From an uncultured Pseudomonadota bacterium (GTDB lineage: Bacteria; Oederibacteriota; Muellerivitia; Muellerivitales; Muellerivitaceae), in NCBI GenBank assembly GCA_963836235.1, contig CAWIIP010000002.1, forward strand, positions 288,001 through 352,000: 64,000 bases of DNA. Direction: 5' to 3'. Made by a program: the position numbers and the translations under genes. Within the stretch, counting starts at the first letter, position 1. Every line of letters begins with the position of its first letter. This document shows positions 1,371 through 62,404 of this stretch, piece after piece. The notes beneath the pieces are model-generated. The model was given only the letters and a program-made list of their open reading frames with translations, had not been told where the DNA came from and did not search any database.

Positions 1371-4300
1371 TTAAGACACCGAAGATTCTTCCGGAGAATT
1401 TTCCCTAAACTTCGTTGAAATTATCTTTGAGACGCCCGATTCTTGCATGGTGACGCCATACATAACATCTGCCGTTTCCATACTCACTTTGCTGTGAGTA
1501 ATCATGATGAACTGGGTCTTCTTGCTGAATTCCCTCAACAAATGGGTAAAGCGACCCACATTCACATCATCTAGTGGTGCGTCAATCTCATCCAATAGGC
1601 AGAAGGGACTCGGCTTCACCATGAAAAGCGCGAATAGGAGCGCGATAGCCGTCAGGGCTTTTTCACCGCCCGACAGCAGGGATACAGATTGAAGACGCTT
1701 TCCCGGAGGACGGGCCACGATTTCAATCCCCGATTCCAATACATCTCCCTCGTCGATCAGAATCAATTCCGCCCGTCCGCCCTCGAACAACCGTTGGAAA
1801 GTATCTTTAAAATTTTCTTGAACCGTAGCGAAAGTGGAAGTGAATAATTCTTTCGAGGTAAGATTAATCTTATTGATTGCCTTTTGAAGGTCGTCTTTCG
1901 CCTTCAAAAGATCTTCCCTTTGTTCGGTAAGGAACTTATACCTTTGGTTTAATTCGTCATATTCCTCGACCGCGACCATGTTCACCAAGCCGAGGCGTTC
2001 AATTTTCGCGCGCAATTCGACCGATTCCTTTTCAGCGTCGTCTCCGTCAAAACCCTTTTCGAGAGCTACCGGAGGATTTTCTAAATCTACCTTATACTCA
2101 ACTTGCAGTTTTTCCTCGATATTACGGACTTCCACGTTCATCTGGGCTTCCTGAAGCTCAAAACCATGAACTTCCTTCTGGACTTCCTCAAACTTGGAAC
2201 GGGAATGGCGCACCTTCTCCGCTCTTTCTTCGGTTTCGATGGCGATCTTCTCTCGTTTTTCCACGAATATTTTGACCCGGGCATCGGCTTCTTGTTTTGA
2301 CTCGGACAATCCGCCAACTTTTTTCTCGAGATCGTTCAAATCCAAGAAAAGTTGCTGTTCCTGTAAATCAAGCTGTTGGTTCTCTTCCCTCTTTTGAACT
2401 ACCGATTGGGTAAGTTGGTCTTGTTCCTTTTGATAACGCTCAGCCTCTTCCTTAGAACGTGCCGCGACTTCATCCAGACTGGCCAACTCAAGTTCTATTT
2501 GCAGAATTTGTTTCGCGATTTCGTCTTTTTGGGCCTGCAACTCTTGCAGCTGCCGCCGGGCTTCGGAAATCTCTTCTTGTGTCAGGTCATGAGCTTGGTC
2601 ACTTTGAGCTACCAGTTGGTTGAGTTCTAGGATACGGCTCTTATCGGTATTCCAATGCTCTTCCAATTGATTCTTCTCATTTTCTTTTGAGGTTTTTTCG
2701 GATTGCAACCGGGACAAAGTCTCGTGTAATTGGGTGATTTCCTTCTCGGCCTCAGCCAAACGGATTTTTAACTGGTGACGCCGGGTTTCGGCGCCCAAAA
2801 GATTATCTTCAGTTTCTTTCCGCTGTTTTTTGGTTTCACCTAACGCGGATTCGGTTTCCTGGAGCTGATTCTCCAAATTTTTCAACTTTCCAGCCATCTC
2901 GGACATTTCACGGTGGCGGCCCATCAGCGAAACACCCGAAACCGCCGAACCAGCCTTAATGAATCCCAGGGGACCCAACCGGTCCCCTTCCTTGGTGACA
3001 AAACGAGTACGGGAGTAACGTTCGGTCAATTCTTCGGCTACAGCCAAATCCTGCACAAAAAGATCCTGTTCAAAAAGAAAACGCACCACCGGTTCCATTT
3101 CAGGATTATATTTCAAAAGAGAAAGTACCGAAGCCTCCACGCCCCGCTCGGAAAGAACGCTTTCGGCAAAACCCTGACCCTGCAATTTAACGAGATCATC
3201 CAGTATGAACAGGGATACTTTCCCCTGGCCCTCAGTCTTCAAATAGGAAATAACCTTTTCGGCGGCTGCACGGTTTCGAACAACCAAAGACTGTAATTGG
3301 CCACCCAATAAAGCTTCCACAGAACTCTCGTGAACTTGGTCAACTGAAATGAGATTCGCCACCACGCCCAGAACCTCCTGCCACATCAGGGGCTCCGTCT
3401 GCTTGGCCAATAGAACCGCCTTTACTCCAGAATCATAGCCCGTCAGCTTGTTCTGAAGTTCTTCAAGAACGCTGTAACGAGAACGGACTTCCGAACAGCT
3501 GTTATTAAGTTGCTTAAGCAACATATTTGTTTCGTCAATTTGGGTTTCCTGTTGCGAAAGGACACTTTGAAAATGGAGTATCCTCTCATCAACTTGTGTC
3601 TCCTCGATTTGGGCGGCATTTTTATCTTCGTGGATCTTAGCCAAACGTTCATCAGCGTTCGCAATTTCGCTTTGAAATCTTCCCACTTGGGCGGCCAAAT
3701 CATTGACGCGCCTAGATGTTTCTTCGTCTTGGGACTTCAACGATTCCAATTCGGCCTTCATGTGAGCTGATTTTTTCATCAGATCCATAGCGGCGGTGTT
3801 TTTGCTTTCCAAGTCCTGGCTTTTGAAGGAAAAATCGCTGCCCAACGCCGACAATTTTGAGCTTAGCTCCTCTTTCAATTTATTCTTTTCTGATTTCTGG
3901 AATTCCTTATTTTGGGATAATTCAATCCTTTCTAATACCCAAATTTTCAACTGCTCGATGCGGCCTAAAGCTTCTGCCTGTTGCTGTTCATTGCGCAGTT
4001 TTTGATCCGCAAGCATATGGCGGTGGCGTTTGGTTCCTTCCATTCGACCTTGGGTAACTTCGACTTCGCTACTAACTTTATAAGCCTGTTCCCGTACACC
4101 GGCCAATTCCTGCTCAATTTCCATTAAATGGGCTCTTTGTTGCTTTTCGTCATGTTCCAATTTATGGGTTTCACCCTGGGCTTCATTTAAACGGTCTTTT
4201 ACCAAGCTCATTTTATGATTGAGGTCTTTGAGTTTGGACTTCAGTTTAGACAACTTATCTAAATGGATCTGAACTTGGAGTTTTCCTAGTTCTTCTTTGT

Positions 4301-6264: not shown

Positions 6265-6765
6265 TTAATTAAACTCCAAAAGCGAGAAGGCCAAATTAGT
6301 ACGGCGAAGTCGGCTGGAAATAAGGCTGATCAAAGTGCAGAAAACTTCATAGGCTACTTCCGGGTTTTTCTTGAGGAATTTCTTAAAATCATCACCTTTG
6401 ATCACGTGAACCGAACAATCCTCGCGCGCCTTAACCGTGGCAGAATAGGGGGCATCGTCAAAAACGCTCATTTCCCCAAAAATAGAGCCTCGGCTAAGGT
6501 CAGCCAAATATTTCTTTTCACCCGGTTGTTTACCGGATTTCGAAACTTCCGCCCGACCGTTAATCATGATGTGGAGGTTTCCGCCCGCTTGTCCTTCTTC
6601 AATAATACCTTGACCAGCTTTGAAATTCTGAACTTTCCCCAACTTGAAAATTTGGCTTAAAGTCTTATCCTGCATGCCATCAAATAAGCTGACTTCTTTT
6701 AAAAAATCAGTGGTAGGCACTTCTTTACGGGTTGGCATAGTTTTTCTCTCCGGAAGTAAAATCAA
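6265..6765 (-). CDS. Stand-alone cyclic nucleotide-binding protein
   Basis: FGEMSVFDDAPYSATVKA cNMP motif, C-terminal SSRLRRTN helix, no HTH. Confidence 0.85.
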   Translation of the reverse strand: MILLPERKTMPTRKEVPTTDFLKEVSLFDGMQDKTLSQIFKLGKVQNFKAGQGIIEEGQAGGNLHIMINGRAEVSKSGKQPGEKKYLADLSRGSIFGEMSVFDDAPYSATVKAREDCSVHVIKGDDFKKFLKKNPEVAYEVFCTLISLISSRLRRTNLAFSLLEFN

Positions 6766-6986: not shown

Positions 6987-7820
6987 TTATTCATCCGCCG
7001 ATTCTTGGGAATAACGATAAGGCGCTTCCCAACTAGCAACGATACGATTGGGAGTTAATCGGCGCCCAAACTTCTTTTTAATAAGATGGAGAGCCGCTAA
7101 ATCGGCGTTTCGGATTTTTTGGGCTTGGGTCAGTGAATATTCAGCGGGCGGAACAGCTTCTCCCGGGCCAACTCTTAACCAAACTTTTTTCCCCGATTGG
7201 CGGACATAAACCTGAACGATCAATTTAGACTTAGGGGCGGTAAAATTGAATTGGCGCCACTGGCGTCCCTCCTGACCGTCATAACTGCCTTCTTCTTGCT
7301 TGCCATCAAGGGGACTTATTAATTTGTATTTTTTGAAAAGAAGGGCGTTAAGTACTTCTTGGGAAGTCCAAGCTATTCGGGAAGATTCGTTCCCCCCTTT
7401 CGCCTTCACCCATCCACCAAAAATAACATTCGGTCTATATTTTGAAACCTGCCAGGGCTTGACTGAATGATGGTGTTTTTTAGCTTTAGTCGCCTCGGCA
7501 CCTGGAGTAGCGACCGCAACTTGGGTGGTCGGAGACTGACTTTGATCATTACTTGTTGGAGGCAAGGGAGGATTCGATAGGGCCGGGTTCGCTGGAGACG
7601 CTTGTGTAGCAGCGGCTTGGTCACCGGGAAGTGGTGGCAAAGCTGGTGCCGCATTAGAAGAGGCCGGTTGATTCGCCGAGGACGCTGGGGCGGTGGAACT
7701 TGCATTAGAAGTAGCTGCCTGACTTTGATCGGGTAAAGGAGGAAGCGGGGGCATATCTTGGGCTGAAACAAAACCTACCGTCATCGAAAAAAGGATGAAC
7801 CCCAAAAATCGTTTCATCAT
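6987..7820 (-). CDS. Exported hypothetical protein with Pro/Ala/Ser-rich N-terminal region
   Basis: Signal peptide, low-complexity linker, RBS AAGGAG. Confidence 0.7.
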   Translation of the reverse strand: MMKRFLGFILFSMTVGFVSAQDMPPLPPLPDQSQAATSNASSTAPASSANQPASSNAAPALPPLPGDQAAATQASPANPALSNPPLPPTSNDQSQSPTTQVAVATPGAEATKAKKHHHSVKPWQVSKYRPNVIFGGWVKAKGGNESSRIAWTSQEVLNALLFKKYKLISPLDGKQEEGSYDGQEGRQWRQFNFTAPKSKLIVQVYVRQSGKKVWLRVGPGEAVPPAEYSLTQAQKIRNADLAALHLIKKKFGRRLTPNRIVASWEAPYRYSQESADE

Positions 7821-56120: not shown

Positions 56121-57095
56121 ATGCTCGCAAATATCAGAAGCGCCGCTCTCTTGGGGATTGACGCCTATGCCGTCGAGTGCGAGGTCGATATTGCTCCCGG
56201 GCTGCCTACTTTCCAAACGGTAGGATTACCGGACGCCGCCGTCAAGGAATCCAAGGACCGGGTCAAAAGTGCCGTCACCAATTCCCAGTTCAATTTTCCC
56301 GTCCAACGTATCACGGTCAATTTAGCCCCGGCTGACACCAAAAAAGAGGGCCCTTCTTTCGACTTACCCATGGCTGTTGGAATATTGGTGGCTTCCGGCC
56401 GCCTCCCCCAAAAATCGGTCGAGGGTTATTGGATGGTGGGCGAATTGGCGCTCGATGGGAAAATCAGGCCGATTCGTGGGGCTCTTTCTATCGCCCTGGC
56501 TGCCCGGGATGCGGGCGTCAAAGGCTTGTTGGTCCCTTCCGAAAACGCCAAGGAAGCGGCGGTCGTCCAGGAACTTCCCGTCTATGCCGTTAAAAACTTG
56601 AAGGAAACCTTTGAGTTTCTCAATGGGAACAAGCAGTTGCATCCCACCCAGGTCAACATCGAGGAGGAGTTTCGCAATCACTCTAACTACAAGCTGGACT
56701 TTTCCGACGTTAAAGGCCAAGAGAACGCCAAAAGGGCTTTGGAAATCGGGGCTGCCGGCGGACACAATATTTTACTGGTGGGGCCCCCCGGCTCCGGGAA
56801 ATCCATGCTTACCAAGCGTCTTCCTACCATTTTGCCTTCCCTATCCCTGGAAGAAGCCATCCAAACCACCAAAATCCACTCCATCGCGGGTACCTTGGCC
56901 CGGCGCAAGGCCCTCATGGCCACCCGTGCCTTCCGATCACCCCACCATACGGTTTCGGATGCTGGTCTCATTGGCGGCGGGACTATTCCTAAACCAGGCG
57001 AGGTCAGTTTGGCTCACAACGGAGTCCTGTTTTTGGATGAGTTTCCGGAGTTTAATAAAAATGTGCTGGAAGTTTTGCGCCAGCCTTTGGAGGAC
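56121..57095 (+). pseudogene. comM: ComM/YifB Mg-chelatase-like AAA+ ATPase, 5' fragment (325 codons)
   Basis: [46 protein letters not shown], then non-homologous sequence. Confidence 0.93.
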
Positions 57096-57155
57096 TTTCG
57101 GGTAAGCGGAAGATTGCGGCTTTTTGGGTTTAAATTGGAGGTTGCAGAAAGGCAA
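57095..57155. repeat. Left direct repeat (remnant 5' end of a second XRE gene)
   Basis: 54/61 ungapped identity to 60789-60849; minus strand reads [20 protein letters not shown]. Confidence 0.9.
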
Positions 57156-57232
57156 AAAAACCATGCATCTTCGCCTACGCGAATATCATTAACAAAGAGT
57201 GAATCTCGGTTACGATCTTAACTGGTTTTCCA

Positions 57233-57895
57233 TTATTTTTTTAGTCGGCTTACTTTTTTTGGCAATATATATAAACTTTCAATTATGTGGTCAATAATAT
57301 CAATGCAAATTTTTAAGTCCTTTTCTGAATGATCACTTAGCTCATGTAAAGCTTCGTTTCCCAGCAACCTTATTTTATGAAGAAATTCTACCTGTTTATT
57401 GTTTAGAATCCCTTTCTCCGCAAGTCCATTCAGCTTTCCTTCCAATGTGTTCTTTGTTTTTACAAGGCCACTATTTTTATCAACAACAAGCCCTTTTAAA
57501 ACTGATTGTTCCTTGCAAATTCCTTCCAGCACCATTCTAATTCCAGCTGCGCACAAGTGAAAATGATTCGCGTTAAATGCCCAAATTGTTTGGTAGTAGA
57601 TGTTTTCTATGTCTTTCGGCGTTCCAGTAGAAGTTTTAATTTGGATATTATTTATTTTTCTGTCGGGATAAATAAATTCATGATCACCAAAATCATCAGC
57701 ATCCATATAATGCCTAAATGTAATTTGATCGCACCCATTACACCTAATAATTTGAAAAGTGTCATCGGTTTCCATTGCAGTGATATCACCGTCTATTTCA
57801 ACATCTTCATTGGAATGGCTTTTAATTTCTTTTAAAACTTTGTGGTGAGTTTTTCTTTTGCAGGAAAGACAATATACATTCATTAAATTTTCCAT
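57233..57895 (-). CDS. DUF4145 (HEPN-like) protein with N-terminal Zn ribbon
   Basis: CLSC..CNGC, AAGIRMVLEGIC, RLLGNEALH (Rx4-6H). Confidence 0.8.
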   Translation of the reverse strand: MENLMNVYCLSCKRKTHHKVLKEIKSHSNEDVEIDGDITAMETDDTFQIIRCNGCDQITFRHYMDADDFGDHEFIYPDRKINNIQIKTSTGTPKDIENIYYQTIWAFNANHFHLCAAGIRMVLEGICKEQSVLKGLVVDKNSGLVKTKNTLEGKLNGLAEKGILNNKQVEFLHKIRLLGNEALHELSDHSEKDLKICIDIIDHIIESLYILPKKVSRLKK

Positions 57896-57907
57896 TTGAT
57901 TTTCGAA

Positions 57908-58555
57908 TTACAACGGTTCAGTTGGCTGGGATTTTGATTTTGCCCAAAACAAACCCCAGATTTCATTTTCGGAGAATGTTTCATGCAGTAAGACTCTTGC
58001 CCCTTCAAAATGTGCACCACTCGTTGTGACATCGTCTAAAAGAGTTAAAATTTTTCCGCTTTTATGTTTTCTTCGAAAATCTTCATTTATTCGTAACGAA
58101 TCATAAACCGATTTCCAATTACGAGGCTTTTTCGATTCATGAAAGGCTGGCATTTTATCACCTTCCAGAATTGGAAAATATTCAACATTTTGGCATTGTT
58201 TTGCGATGGCCTGAGCAACCAAATCAATACGATCGTCATAGTCTTTATGGGATCTTTGTTTTGAACATGGCATTGGGATAATCAAAAACTTTTCGTCACT
58301 ACGCTTTTTCGAAGTCAAAAAATCCGTTACTTCTTGTGAAAACGTATCAATCGCTCCGTTGCGATATCCAATTCGGTTGCTTGGAGCTTTTTTACCCATT
58401 TGAAAATTGGCGATTAATTGATTGGTCTCGGAGAATCCGAAACCCTTGCCAGGAGTGTATGTTCTTGCATAATAAATGTTTTTTTCTAGGTGACCATTGC
58501 AACAATAAAAATCGTCAGTTTCGTCGGCCTGACGCCACCTTTTTTCATTTTGCAT
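57908..58555 (-). CDS. Phosphoribosyltransferase-like protein (ShosT/ComF-like)
   Basis: IIPMPCSK, LLDDVTTSGAHF PRPP-binding loop. Confidence 0.8.
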   Translation of the reverse strand: MQNEKRWRQADETDDFYCCNGHLEKNIYYARTYTPGKGFGFSETNQLIANFQMGKKAPSNRIGYRNGAIDTFSQEVTDFLTSKKRSDEKFLIIPMPCSKQRSHKDYDDRIDLVAQAIAKQCQNVEYFPILEGDKMPAFHESKKPRNWKSVYDSLRINEDFRRKHKSGKILTLLDDVTTSGAHFEGARVLLHETFSENEIWGLFWAKSKSQPTEPL

Positions 58556-58574
58556 GTTAAACCGATTCCCATAT

Positions 58575-59480
58575 CTAATTTAACGACTGTAGTTCATCTA
58601 CTAATTGTTTATCATCAGTAATTTTTATGGCACCTTTTTTAAGATATGTTTCTGGCCAGTTCAACCCTTTATCAAAACAAGACTTCAAAATAAATAATTT
58701 TTTACCTTGTTTAATGGCGGCTCGTGCCTGAATTAAAGAACCGCTTGTATCAGAAGCTTCAACTATAACTGTTGCCGCACTCAAGGCGGCCATCGTTACA
58801 TTTCTTGCGGGGAAAAAATTTCTTTTGTACTTCCAAAAAGTGCTCAAAGAATTTACATAAAATGGAACTTGGCTTAAAACCAAATACTCTTTAGCAATTT
58901 CTTCTTGGAGTGTTTTATTGTTCTTTGGATAAACTTCATTTAAGGCGGTTCCTAAAACTGCGATAGTTTTGCCTCCATTTTCAATAGTCGCTTGATGTGC
59001 GGCTGAATCAATGCCTTCTGCTAATCCCGACATAACCGTAAATTTATTTTCCACAAGAAGGCTTGCAACTTTTTTCGCTCTTTTAATGCCTTCAGGCGAA
59101 GCTTGTCGAGCACCAACTACAGAGACAATTCTAGATGAAAGTAAGTCTAGCGCTCCACGATAATAAAGAACTTCCAGTGGATACTCCGCCAATCTTAATC
59201 TTTCTGGATATTCAAAATCTTTGTGAAAAATTGCCGAATAACTTTTGAAAGGCATTAACCCATTTATTGTGTTTTTAATTTGTTCGATCTTTTCGTCAAC
59301 AATCCCAACTAATTTCGCAATATTTGATGGCAATTCGTAATTATGACTTTGGAATAGTTCGGCAATTTTTTTAACACTTGGGTATTTCTCCCATAAAGAT
59401 TCATAGGCGGAAATTTCCCAAGTAGGGCGTATCACATCATCTTGATTTTCAAAAAAACCTACCTGAGCACTTGTGTTCAT
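58575..59480 (-). CDS. DprA/Smf-family protein (ShosA-like)
   Basis: YPERL, VVGARQAS, SGLAEGIDSAAH, FPARN, VEASDTSGSLIQA. Confidence 0.9.
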   Translation of the reverse strand: MNTSAQVGFFENQDDVIRPTWEISAYESLWEKYPSVKKIAELFQSHNYELPSNIAKLVGIVDEKIEQIKNTINGLMPFKSYSAIFHKDFEYPERLRLAEYPLEVLYYRGALDLLSSRIVSVVGARQASPEGIKRAKKVASLLVENKFTVMSGLAEGIDSAAHQATIENGGKTIAVLGTALNEVYPKNNKTLQEEIAKEYLVLSQVPFYVNSLSTFWKYKRNFFPARNVTMAALSAATVIVEASDTSGSLIQARAAIKQGKKLFILKSCFDKGLNWPETYLKKGAIKITDDKQLVDELQSLN

Positions 59481-59640
59481 GGAAAATCTCCCCTATTTCG
59501 TGGATGGCGGATAGTATACGGGAGTATACTTTTAAAATTCAAGAGATTCTAATCCTAGCAGAATCAGACCTCATTTTAAGCGGTTTTCCTCTTAATAAAG
59601 TTCCTTAAATCTTCTAAATTATTTAGACCCCCATAAAATA

Positions 59641-60357
59641 TTATTCAGAAAACAAAAGCTGAAACCCATCAACTATTTTTTCATAGTCTATCGCCGTGGA
59701 TGACTCTGTCAGAGTTAGGCCGTTAACGAACCCTATAAATCGTACAGCGCGCTCATATTCTTCCTCGTACATTTTCAGGGTAATCACTTTTGGTGTGCCT
59801 CCAACACTCCCATCCTTTCCCAAAAGAACATAAAGAGAATTTTGTTTTCGTTTATCTTTTTTACCATTAGCAATTTTCATTGCTTCCTCATCCCAATCAG
59901 TACTTCCATAGCTGTATACTGGCCCCCACCTGCCAACTTTTTCAAACTTAAGAATATTCATCGAATCAGCAACTTTGCTTGGTAACCTAAAATCTCCTGT
60001 TTTCATTTGCTCTTTATGTCTCGCAAGCATTTCTTCAAAGTCGGGGGATAAATGGTCGACAATAATACTTAATAAATGTTTACAATTATGGTCGCGAGTA
60101 ATCCGAAGTATGTTTTTATTCCAAGGGATAACACCCTTAGCTACTAAATGAAGCAAAAATCCCTTGGCGCATTCTTCTTGTGAAATTACGGAAAGAAAAT
60201 AAGGCGTAGCCAGAGAATAATCCCACTCTTTTAAATGTTGGCTTTCTTCCAATAATCGATTTGCATTTTCAACACAAACCTTAATTGACCGTGTCCAATT
60301 TTTTTTCTTCTTCAATGTTTTTTCAATCCTAACGTGATGTATCCTGCCTTTTTTCAC
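59641..60357 (-). CDS. AbiV-family abortive infection (HEPN-like) protein
   Basis: ENANRLLEES..L, SQEECAK, DHNCKH, KQNSLYV pattern typical of AbiV. Confidence 0.7.
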   Translation of the reverse strand: MKKGRIHHVRIEKTLKKKKNWTRSIKVCVENANRLLEESQHLKEWDYSLATPYFLSVISQEECAKGFLLHLVAKGVIPWNKNILRITRDHNCKHLLSIIVDHLSPDFEEMLARHKEQMKTGDFRLPSKVADSMNILKFEKVGRWGPVYSYGSTDWDEEAMKIANGKKDKRKQNSLYVLLGKDGSVGGTPKVITLKMYEEEYERAVRFIGFVNGLTLTESSTAIDYEKIVDGFQLLFSE

Positions 60358-60411
60358 ACTATGAAATAGTCGGGTGACAAACCTGATTTTTCCATTTTCC
60401 CTGAAGCCGGA

Positions 60412-60855
60412 TTATTTCCTCGATTCTATTATTATCGAGAGCTTTTTAATGAGTTTTTTTGATGGCTCATGTTTCCCACGTTCCCACTTCGCGACAGTCG
60501 TTTCATCTACCCCGACCAATTGAGCGAATTTCTCCTGACTCAATCCATGGGTTAGGCGATAAAGCTTCATCTGTTCAACAACGTTGTCAGTTTTCTTGCA
60601 GTAGGGTGGTGGGGTGTACCCCAGGAAGGCAATGATCTTGGGTAGGTAGGTGAAATAGGGCGTGACCCGGTTCAGTTCCCAGTTTGTGACCGCCGATTCG
60701 GTGACCCCCAAGGTGGCCGCCACGTCTTTTTGCCACAGCCCCAGGTCAAGGCGGCGCTTCCTGATGTGATCCCCCAGGGTAGTCAGAGCTTTCGGGTAAG
60801 CGCGAGATTGGGGCTTTTTCGCTTTAAATTGTAGCTTGCAGAAAGGCAACGCCAC
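60412..60855 (-). CDS. Transcriptional regulator with two XRE HTH domains; start codon overlaps the comM junction
   Basis: LGDHIRKRRLDLGLWQKDVA..VTNWE and GLSQEKFAQLVGVDETTVAKWERG. Confidence 0.9.
   Translation of the reverse strand: MALPFCKLQFKAKKPQSRAYPKALTTLGDHIRKRRLDLGLWQKDVAATLGVTESAVTNWELNRVTPYFTYLPKIIAFLGYTPPPYCKKTDNVVEQMKLYRLTHGLSQEKFAQLVGVDETTVAKWERGKHEPSKKLIKKLSIIIESRK
60789..60849. repeat. Right direct repeat (5' end of the XRE gene)
   Basis: 54/61 identity to 57095-57155; minus strand reads LPFCKLQFKAKKPQSRAYPK. Confidence 0.9.
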
Positions 60856-61340
60856 CCTGCCCCTGTGGTTATTACACCGACCCTTCCAAGGAATGCACTT
60901 GCACGCCCCACCAAATACAGAAATACCTGAGCAAGATTTCCGGCCCCCTTTTGGATCGCATTGACCTGCATATCGACGTACCCGCTTTGAAATGGAAGGA
61001 AATATCCGATACTGAACCCAGCGAGCCTTCGGGAGCCATCCGTGAGCGGATCAGCAAGGCCCGGACCATTCAACAAAAGCGTTTCACGGGCGAGGGCTTA
61101 CATTGCAATTCCCAAATGGCGACTACCCAATTGCGCAAATACTGCGGCCTGGACGAGCCGTCCCAGTCCCTCTTAAAGAACGCCATGGAAAAATTCGGCC
61201 TCTCAGCTCGCGCTTACGACCGAATCCTGAAAGTCGCCCGCACCATCGCTGACTTGGATTCCGAAGAATTTATCAAACCCGCCTATATCGCCGAAGCCAT
61301 CCAATACCGTAACTTGGATAGAAGTGTTTGGCGGAATTAA
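60855..61340 (+). pseudogene. comM: ComM/YifB 3' fragment
   Basis: PCPCGYYTDPSKECTC..SKISGPLLDRID..LSARAYDRILKVARTIADL..EAIQYR. Confidence 0.93.
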
Positions 61341-61423
61341 ACAGTACTCTTCGAGTAAAAGATCGTGCCCGATAACTGGAATTAATCAAAATCTTGCTTG
61401 TAACCGTGGACCATCCATTTAAC

Positions 61424-62404
61424 CTACCGATTAACGGCGCTCATATCCGGATAACGCTGGCCGGCCGCCACACCCATTGGAAAAGCCTCGTTCAAGCGGT
61501 TCAAGTCGTCGGTCGTGAGTTTTACGTCTAAAGCCGCGGCATTTTCTTCCAAACGTGAAATCTTTCGAGTCCCCGGGATCGGAACAATATCCTCCCCTTG
61601 GGCCATTACCCAAGCCAGCGCCAACTGGGCGGGAGTGATTTTCTTTTCGTCCGCCAACTTTTTAACAAAATTGGCCAAATGAAGATTTTTCTCAAAATTC
61701 TCCTCAGTGAATCTGGGATTTTTCCGGCGCCAATCGCTTTCGGCCAAATCGTCCCGTTTTTGGAAAACTCCGGTCAGAAATCCCCTTCCCAAGGGGCTGT
61801 AAGATACGAACCCGATCCCCAATTCACGGGTGGTCTTCAACAGCTCGTCCTCCGGTTCCCTGCTCCAAAGGGAATATTCAGTTTGGAGGGCTGAAATGGG
61901 ATGCGCCGCGTTGGCTCGGCGGATGGTTTGGGGTCCCGCCTCGGATAAGCCCAGGTACCGCACCTTTCCCTGTTGGACCAGCTTGGCCATGGCCCCCACC
62001 GTGTCTTCGATGGGAACGGTGTTGTCTACCCGGTGCTGGTAATAAAGGTCAATCACATCGATTTTGAGGCGCTTCAATGAGGCGTCGCAACATTGGAGGA
62101 CATATTCGGGCTTTCCACTAATCCCCAGGAACTTCCCGTCCGTTGACCTCTGGTTTCCAAACTTAGTAGCGACGATGATTTGAGATCGCCTGCCTTGTAG
62201 AAACTTCCCCAACAATTCCTCATTGGTAAAAGGCCCGTACATATCAGCCGTATCGAGAAAATTAATCTCTAAATCCAGGGCCTTTTGCAGGACTTCTAGC
62301 GATTCCTGGTCATTGCGTGGCCCGTAAAAATCCGACATACCCATGCATCCCAATCCTAAACGCGAAACCCTGAGTCCCTGTCGTCCCAACGGAATTTTTC
62401 TCAT
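61424..62404 (-). CDS. Aldo/keto reductase
   Basis: [37 protein letters not shown]. Confidence 0.95.

Follow-up and report, generated by a model that had tools for sequence, protein, structure and literature searches.

A 64,000-nucleotide stretch of DNA from an uncultured Pseudomonadota bacterium (assembly GCA_963836235.1, contig CAWIIP010000002.1, positions 288,001 to 352,000; hereafter the window, in whose numbering all coordinates are given) carries the DNA-uptake gene comM interrupted by a 3.7-kb island of five genes, one of which encodes a protein with two helix-turn-helix (HTH) domains of the XRE type. The island is best read, with a probability of about 0.75, as the immobilised remnant of a family of elements that insert into comM by means of a large serine recombinase (LSR) and carry the attachment site attP inside the recombinase gene. 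The XRE gene, which a preliminary description of this DNA had treated as an independent regulator and the only core gene of its family, is, by comparison with relatives, the C-terminal double-HTH tail of an LSR whose open reading frame (ORF) spans attP and is split on integration, rather than a free regulator.

Relatives in which the two parts are still joined provide the evidence for this identity. In locus L059, a single ORF of 643 amino acids carries Resolvase, Recombinase and HTH_3 domains, and its sequence ...NLCYVPSSSELVSTGQRNFTP runs without a break into ALPFCKIELK...YPTALYTLGDHIRKKRLDLG; the same continuity between LSR and tail is seen in L094, L078 and L119, up to the contig edges. 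Fused proteins combining PF00239, PF07508 and PF01381 were also present in the protein collection, namely P0001 (659 amino acids), P0003 (643 amino acids) and P0006 (675 amino acids). The island XRE protein is 61% identical to P0001, which is labelled just "recombinase family protein", and 49% identical to residues 501-639 of the L059 ORF. Among phage records, 0 of 584 matching records cover at least 80% of the LSR-tail protein, and among plasmid records 0 of 289 do so. Within the phylum, LSR homologs are mostly broken, with two stops in genome G022, six stops in G068, and fragments in G029 and G001.

The recombinase body is found at the opposite junction of complete relatives. In L093, a 506-residue LSR body ends a few codons into the antisense strand of the left part of comM, with three tails upstream, and in G058, a genome of the same phylum, the 3' part of an LSR is followed on one contig by the left part of comM ending at residue 366, while the junction of the right part with the XRE gene lies on another. 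The family is therefore not recombinase-free, as the preliminary description had supposed, and the island would be what that description had named as its own refutation, a deletion derivative of an integrase-bearing island. Viewed as an LSR element, the island is inserted at the comM site and has LSR homologs at the same site (L093, G058); it has no LSR of its own, and of the two expected flanks, attL and attR, only attR is present.

Comparison of attL, attR and attB in L091 and L093 locates the crossover at a TG dinucleotide, with which the first Cys codon of the comM motif PCPCG begins; on the tail strand this is a CA lying, in the sites tabulated, 8 nt before the TTG start of the tail. The attP is an imperfect palindrome, in L094 ATGGCAA-N5-CAACGCA-N4-CA-N4-TGCGTTG-N5-TTGCCAT, and in the family both arms belong to the coding sequence, one reading ...MAE(R/G)Q... 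and the other ...ALPFC(H).... Hence attP lies inside the LSR gene, and integration into comM detaches the double-HTH tail. An attP within the reading frame and a gene divided by integration are thus found in the relatives, and the island holds the C-terminal product only. The tail is under purifying selection, with dN/dS values of 0.10-0.15 in 10 comparisons, and part of this signal may date from its life inside intact LSR genes.

The same junction recurs widely. An XRE homolog is present in 9 of 99 genomes of the phylum, the island genome included; its start abuts a comM 3' fragment in G002, G070, G058 and G062 and a short comM remnant in G029. In G027 (L044, G027:C47, about 7060-7110), a gene for a CDGSH iron-sulfur-domain protein adjoins the tail start, the join falling at ...QCRCG..., which resembles PCPCG, and this is likely a secondary integration site. 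A metagenome scan yielded 375 relatives, from which 80 loci were kept. Here 48 XRE starts lie directly against a comM fragment of the opposite strand, and for 35 of those the fragment begins exactly at comM residue 362; three starts directly follow an LSR gene, three lie at contig edges, and 33 were classed as other. The last class includes two self-matches of the second HTH, several internal array junctions, and L078, which was placed there since its LSR piece is short and would be a fourth start following an LSR. The comM fragments at the tail junctions show only 43-89% identity to the reference comM and thus come from many hosts. The island's right junction, at the TG of PCPCG, matches that of the 48 metagenome starts and of four loci of the phylum, and the adjacency of the XRE gene to PCPCG, previously noted for this DNA alone, thus proves to be nucleotide-exact in many unrelated hosts.

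Both ends of the island carry a direct repeat, at 57095-57166 and 60789-60860, identical at 60 of 72 positions, with a best 61-nt register of 54/61 and a spacing of 3694. The repeat and the 3694-bp unit had been described before and stand, as the best of 30 shuffles of the left flank reached only 32/61. The whole genome (3.97 Mb in five contigs, 99.4% complete) contains these two copies only, with no further copy of the repeat, its core or the pre-tail block described below.

The right copy together with the TG (60790..60859) has the junction found in relatives, with a P half-site joined to the comM B' half-site. Read on the minus strand, it encodes the start of the XRE ORF, codons 1-23 (LPFCKLQFKAKKPQSRAYPK); this XRE gene is complete, and comM sequence begins 8 nt upstream of its TTG. 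The 61-nt repeat is accordingly the P half-site of attP together with tail codons 1-23. The left copy (57096..57163, minus strand) is the stump of a second LSR-tail (XRE) gene, its first 23 codons, matched by tblastn to XRE residues 1-23. It is most similar to the 5' end of the L045 tail and is joined directly to the antisense strand of comM-left at an arbitrary point; this left copy is a P half-site of attP with linker codons, fused to comM-left by a join that is not site-specific. Beside it, the crossover TG of the left site lies at 57164..57165, again a CA 8 nt upstream of the tail TTG and assigned by the attL/attR/attB comparison in L091 and L093, and the corresponding TG of the right copy at 60858-60859. 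The shared core reported earlier is now seen to contain the crossover dinucleotide.

To the right of the left copy follows the pre-tail block on the P side (57166..57232, minus strand), a segment of 68 nt (57165-57232, the second base of the TG included) whose DNA aligns with the sequence upstream of free-standing tails in three relatives, G068, G012 and L045. In LSR-bearing relatives the 3' end of the LSR occupies this position, and L091, a 2.1-kb LSR-less element that keeps both junctions, retains there, at its attL, the last 20 or so LSR codons. The right site is an ordinary attR, and the left one an attP-like site made of the pre-tail block, the TG and the tail stump. Since the comM-side half-site lies among 75 bases deleted from comM, the site pair is attP-like plus attR rather than attL plus attR, and the two repeats do not form the att-like pair of a mobile unit that had been proposed, the left one being an attP-like junction on a truncated comM.

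This deletion was recognised by comparison with intact genes. The 5' part of comM, residues 1-325 (56121..57095, plus strand), matches Pfam ChlI and positions 1-135 of the Mg_chelatase profile and ends ...VLRQPLED; the 3' part, from PCPCGYY... to the stop (60855..61340, plus strand), comprises the last 161 codons of the gene, matches positions 158-206 of the same profile and Mg_chelatase_C, and is in synteny. The comM 5' query matched 27 of the 31 genomes searched, and in all 10 loci then read the gene is uninterrupted, LRQPLED and PCPCG being separated by 25 codons (75 nt, GMVTISRVQSSLTFPAQFMLAAAMN) that are absent from the interrupted comM here, so that comM-left, which is 83-93% identical to the comM of relatives, ends 75 nt short of the recombination site. 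An aldo-keto reductase gene downstream is common to the two closest relatives, and a 92-residue upstream gene is present in 11 of 11 loci; both comM halves sit in their native context. With 75 nt of comM missing, a repeat unlike them and native flanks, the event must be seen as insertion combined with deletion rather than as a clean insertion, and comM is inactivated in the genome studied. The interruption between LRQPLED (57095) and PCPCG had been placed correctly, as the Pfam matches to both parts attest, and the 75-nt loss had been missed. The earlier statement that the repeat is not comM sequence is borne out by the 75-nt segment of the 10 relatives; its interpretation as a diverged or surrogate comM segment was rejected, as it shows no similarity to that segment. 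Compared with the closest relative, G006, the 5' part of comM has 93% protein identity and the 3' part 81%, both as open frames, a difference that takes no account of how strongly the two domains are normally conserved.

In this family, the free or attP form of the element encodes a protein of about 640-675 amino acids, consisting of catalytic, recombinase and zinc-ribbon/coiled-coil parts followed by the double-HTH (XRE) tail. Recombination with comM at the TG splits this gene, leaving the LSR body at comM-left and the tail as a separate XRE ORF abutting comM-right. The following history would produce the present arrangement. Two related elements would once have been stacked at comM, as in L047, L101 and L093, and a single deletion may then have taken out the inner one, beginning at codon 24 of its tail and extending through its attL into comM, of which 75 nt were lost. 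The outer of the two would have been without its LSR by then; it carries a foreign, low-GC defence block (AbiV-like, ShosTA, DUF4145). The genome lacks a cognate LSR, and the cassette an attL and a B half-site, so the cassette is most likely fixed and the island most likely a stranded remnant. Its present function is predicted from its genes to be that of the cargo, a defence of the abortive-infection type, with the conserved tail possibly acting as a stand-alone regulator.

A number of observations weigh against this account. The stacked-then-deleted history, which we infer from the end state, is one of several that would give it. The lineage nearest this tail (at least 75% identity: G068, G002, G070, L045-L051) yielded neither a fusion of LSR and tail nor an LSR body, and tblastn detected no protein-level LSR remnant in the pre-tail block (57166-57232); short LSR remnants at the pre-tail position occur only in other lineages (L064, L100, L115/L118, L120/L122, L091). 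By inspection, the P' arm of the pre-tail block does not form a palindrome with the P arm. The contigs in which LSR and tail are contiguous could be array junctions rather than free circles. Additionally, an intact comM accompanied by a duplicated comM 3' fragment (G070, L104, L075, L084, L087) is unexplained by simple attP x attB integration, and arrays with attP-like internal junctions are hard to derive under the pairing rules of serine integrases.

Such arrays (L047, L101, L093), along with a recombinase-less relative that keeps both junctions (L091) and the fact that the island's own two sites are direct repeats sharing the TG, would suit a non-autonomous cassette whose two att-like repeats are both functional and which leaves the chromosome as a 3694-bp circle through a recombinase acting in trans, as the preliminary description had it. 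For this copy, mobilisation in trans is unlikely: the left site has lost its comM-side half-site with the 75 deleted nucleotides, which leaves an attP-like plus attR pair, and serine integrases are reported not to recombine pairings other than their standard ones (PMC3783163). The genome yielded 0 matches to the family LSR at 1e-30; it has two serine recombinase genes, the better of which is 22.8% identical to the family LSR. The site has no second copy elsewhere in the genome, and the cargo DNA of the island was found in 0 of the 30 other family genomes.

Still less probable is a recombination hotspot without any site-specific step, where XRE and comM are no more than conserved flanks and cargo taken up as DNA is exchanged between them through homologous or homology-facilitated illegitimate recombination. 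The island's left junction is indeed an illegitimate join, homology among relatives stops exactly at the stop codon of the tail, and an intact comM with a diverged 3' duplicate (80% DNA identity in G070) could arise in this way; exchange of this kind is at odds with a comM-tail junction that is nucleotide-identical in hosts whose comM is 43-89% identical, with the secondary site in another gene that resembles the comM site, and with the LSR bodies at the matching opposite junction. An assembly artefact at the left junction is the least credible explanation. The genome is apparently metagenome-assembled, but it consists of five contigs with 99.4% completeness and 0.14% contamination, and native synteny is found on both sides. 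Over 61 positions there are 7 differences between the repeat copies, and their longest identical run, by inspection 14 nt, is too short to collapse an assembly.

Other enzymes were considered as well. All eight tyrosine recombinase matches in the genome lie outside the window. Six paralogous tyrosine integrases of about 370 amino acids (C2:509098, C5:272844, C4:245282, C2:1374385, C2:1186149 and C4:196578) share near-identical N-termini, MS(R/K)PNVHGLPQ.LRKD..GYFLDYF, and one of them adjoins a 529-residue serine recombinase whose ORF enters a tRNA-like sequence. As trans-acting enzymes for the island they were rejected, with no related site near them or elsewhere in the genome. Mobilisation of the Xer/dif type (IMEX), by Tn7-like elements or by HUH (Y1) enzymes was dropped once the opposite junctions proved to carry LSR bodies; the genome has three Y1_Tnp genes, and in one relative, L043, the tail adjoins a gene of this kind.

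The stranded remnant has parallels among recombinase-less stacked cargo islands with att-derived repeats, such as the ccr-less pseudo-SCC and composite SCC arrays at rlmH in staphylococci and the CIMEs of streptococcal ICEs, the SCC site being used by serine recombinase elements and the CIME site by tyrosine recombinase elements. Pseudo-SCC and CIMEs keep two usable att sites and occur together with a cognate recombinase, whereas the island keeps one site, and the cell has no cognate recombinase. Integron cassettes are likewise promoter-poor cargo units stacked at one site; here, in contrast, no IntI gene is present in the window, the repeat is a coding P half-site and not attC, and the enzyme family differs.

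The use of comM as a target is well documented, homologs of the Mg-chelatase/ATP-dependent-protease gene (comM/yifB) accounting for 12.4% of the targets of predicted site-specific LSRs (Durrant et al. 2022, PMC10083194). The elements in that survey share with the present family the target gene, the enzyme class (in relatives), the 2-bp crossover and a palindromic attP; the island differs in lacking an LSR and attL, and neither an attP inside an ORF nor a detached tail is mentioned in the excerpted part of that report (PMC10083194). Phage WO sr1WO of Wolbachia is, by its description, a further likeness: a serine recombinase inserts it into an Mg-chelatase gene, and HTH_XRE regulators lie at the opposite (3') end of the prophage (PMC9203015). 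The sr1WO elements are full prophages, and continuity of a recombinase-XRE ORF across attP is not stated in the excerpt of that paper (PMC9203015). The closest mechanistic likeness is offered by the 'suicidal' tyrosine integrases of the SSV type, which have attP in the integrase ORF, are split between the two ends of the element on integration and are restored by tandem integration (PMC7253208). Integrases of this type are described as "so far restricted to archaea" (PMC7253208). The comM family differs from them in being a bacterial serine recombinase, with Resolvase and Recombinase Pfam domains in place of the SSV tyrosine fold and bacterial in place of archaeal hosts, in having an N part that keeps all canonical LSR domains, and in having a C part that is a self-contained HTH module under purifying selection. 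The open-access papers and bioRxiv preprints searched included none describing an attP within a serine recombinase ORF.

It is a tentative and rather doubtful extension of this likeness that the comM-targeting LSR family is what the self-splitting integrases are in archaea, a bacterial counterpart built on a serine recombinase, in which integration leaves the enzyme alive, the fission serves as a switch of directionality or expression and the detached tail acts in trans. The free element would then make an LSR-HTH protein, and the integrated one two products, an LSR without its tail and a free-standing XRE protein. The tail might be needed for the attP x attB reaction or bias it, and once detached it might act in trans as a repressor or excision co-factor. 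It might also outlive the enzyme and stay on as regulator of the cargo, and the intact tail under purifying selection in defence islands that have no recombinase, such as the present one, would then be explained.

No gene is known to be targeted more often by site-specific serine integrases than comM, and a decayed island at this site is nothing unusual. Less ordinary is the identity of the XRE gene as a detached integrase tail, by which genes annotated everywhere as small transcription factors mark old integrase sites, and the tail offers a nucleotide-exact landmark for finding comM islands and their cargo. If the split is functional, it would represent a natural, self-contained way to make serine-integrase reactions depend on the state of integration; for comparable control, engineers have fused directionality factors to integrases (PMC5737554). 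For the organism studied, the outcome is the inactivation of comM and the gain of a fixed defence block of the ShosTA/AbiV type.

The genes of the island all lie on the minus strand. A zinc-ribbon and DUF4145 protein (57233..57895; Pfam DUF4145 1.6e-14; GC 0.33) with a weak likeness to PD-T7-4 (PADLOC 8.6e-5) is followed by ShosT, a phosphoribosyltransferase-type toxin (57908..58555; PADLOC 2.7e-35), and its DprA/SLOG-type partner ShosA (58575..59480; PADLOC 2.2e-80; Pfam DNA_processg_A 3.4e-56). The ShosT and ShosA genes are adjacent, 19 nt apart and on the same strand, which is the gene arrangement of ShosTA, and such a defence system is predicted to be present. An AbiV-like HEPN protein comes next (59641..60357; Pfam HEPN_AbiV 1.6e-13; weak PADLOC AbiV match, 0.0049), and the intact XRE gene with two HTH_3 domains and a conserved TTG start (60412..60849) completes the set. 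None of the five ORFs matches any recombinase or transposase family, which agrees with the first description of the island. The same description held all five genes to be AT-rich; this applies to the four cargo genes (GC 0.33-0.38) and not to the XRE gene, whose GC of 0.50 equals that of the window. A 30-nt imperfect direct repeat (70%) lies at both edges of the low-GC cargo block (57226-57255 and 60388-60417), each copy spanning a stop codon (of the DUF4145 gene and the tail gene, respectively) and a ATGGAAAA motif, and may mark the entry of the cargo block or be due to chance in AT-rich DNA. A promoter and terminator scan of 56900-61500 found 14 promoter-like sites against 10.3 +/- 3.2 expected and was uninformative.

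Across the family, cargo follows directly downstream of the tail, homology among relatives ends at the tail stop codon, and the cargo is different in every locus, in keeping with the variability previously proposed. It consists of TetR, NmrA and GAPDH genes in G070, OYE, KatG and pirin genes in G002, a TOTE primase-helicase in G012 and transporters in G029, while the metagenome loci contribute RHS toxins, kinases and Fic proteins. Among 25 loci with at least 2.5 kb of sequence after the tail, recognised defence systems were found in the cargo regions of six, the island being additional: a Thoeris-type TIR with QueC/TGT (L059), CBASS (L069), a type I methyltransferase with PtuA (L074), SoFic (L084), SIR2-pAgo (L104) and Gabija (L111). 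The notion of a store of defence genes is thus only partly borne out.

LSR-bearing relatives (L059, L082, L093, L094, L104, L119, L124 and, more weakly, L118) share a gene for a TrwB/VirD4-like ATPase of 680-1020 amino acids with a likeness to PADLOC 'mad8', often accompanied by bPH_2 and HTH_36 proteins. Given this shared backbone, a phage seems less likely than a small element that is conjugative or mobilisable.

Tandem stacking, which had been proposed from this locus alone, is seen in L101 and L093, each with three stacked units (three XRE copies), and in L097, L047 and G012. In L047, whose tail is 82% identical, a comM fragment adjoins a tail, cargo and a second, decaying tail, without an LSR, and G070 provides another small element without a recombinase. 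In L036 (G002:C8), a second comM 3' fragment (6430-6475) is preceded only by a tail stump of about 45 nt and the core; KatG and a pirin-like gene lie between the two comM fragments, forming a unit without its tail that is comparable to the island's left repeat.

Duplications of comM itself accompany several of these loci. In L038 (G070), L104, L075, L084 and L087, an intact comM is followed by cargo, a tail gene and a second, diverged copy of comM residues 362-525. The comM copies in G070 have 80% DNA identity, and all pairs compared to single out the native 3' copy are about 80% identical; the copy adjoining the tail is frameshifted, and a decayed tail stump lies just past the stop of the intact comM. 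One idea is that in loci of this kind comM was repaired by uptake of a foreign allele. A shorter duplicate, about 50 nt of the comM 3' end, lies some 85 nt past the stop of an intact comM in L013 (G005, 3123-3176) and L019 (G009, 3125-3169), possibly as the scar of an earlier event at the locus.

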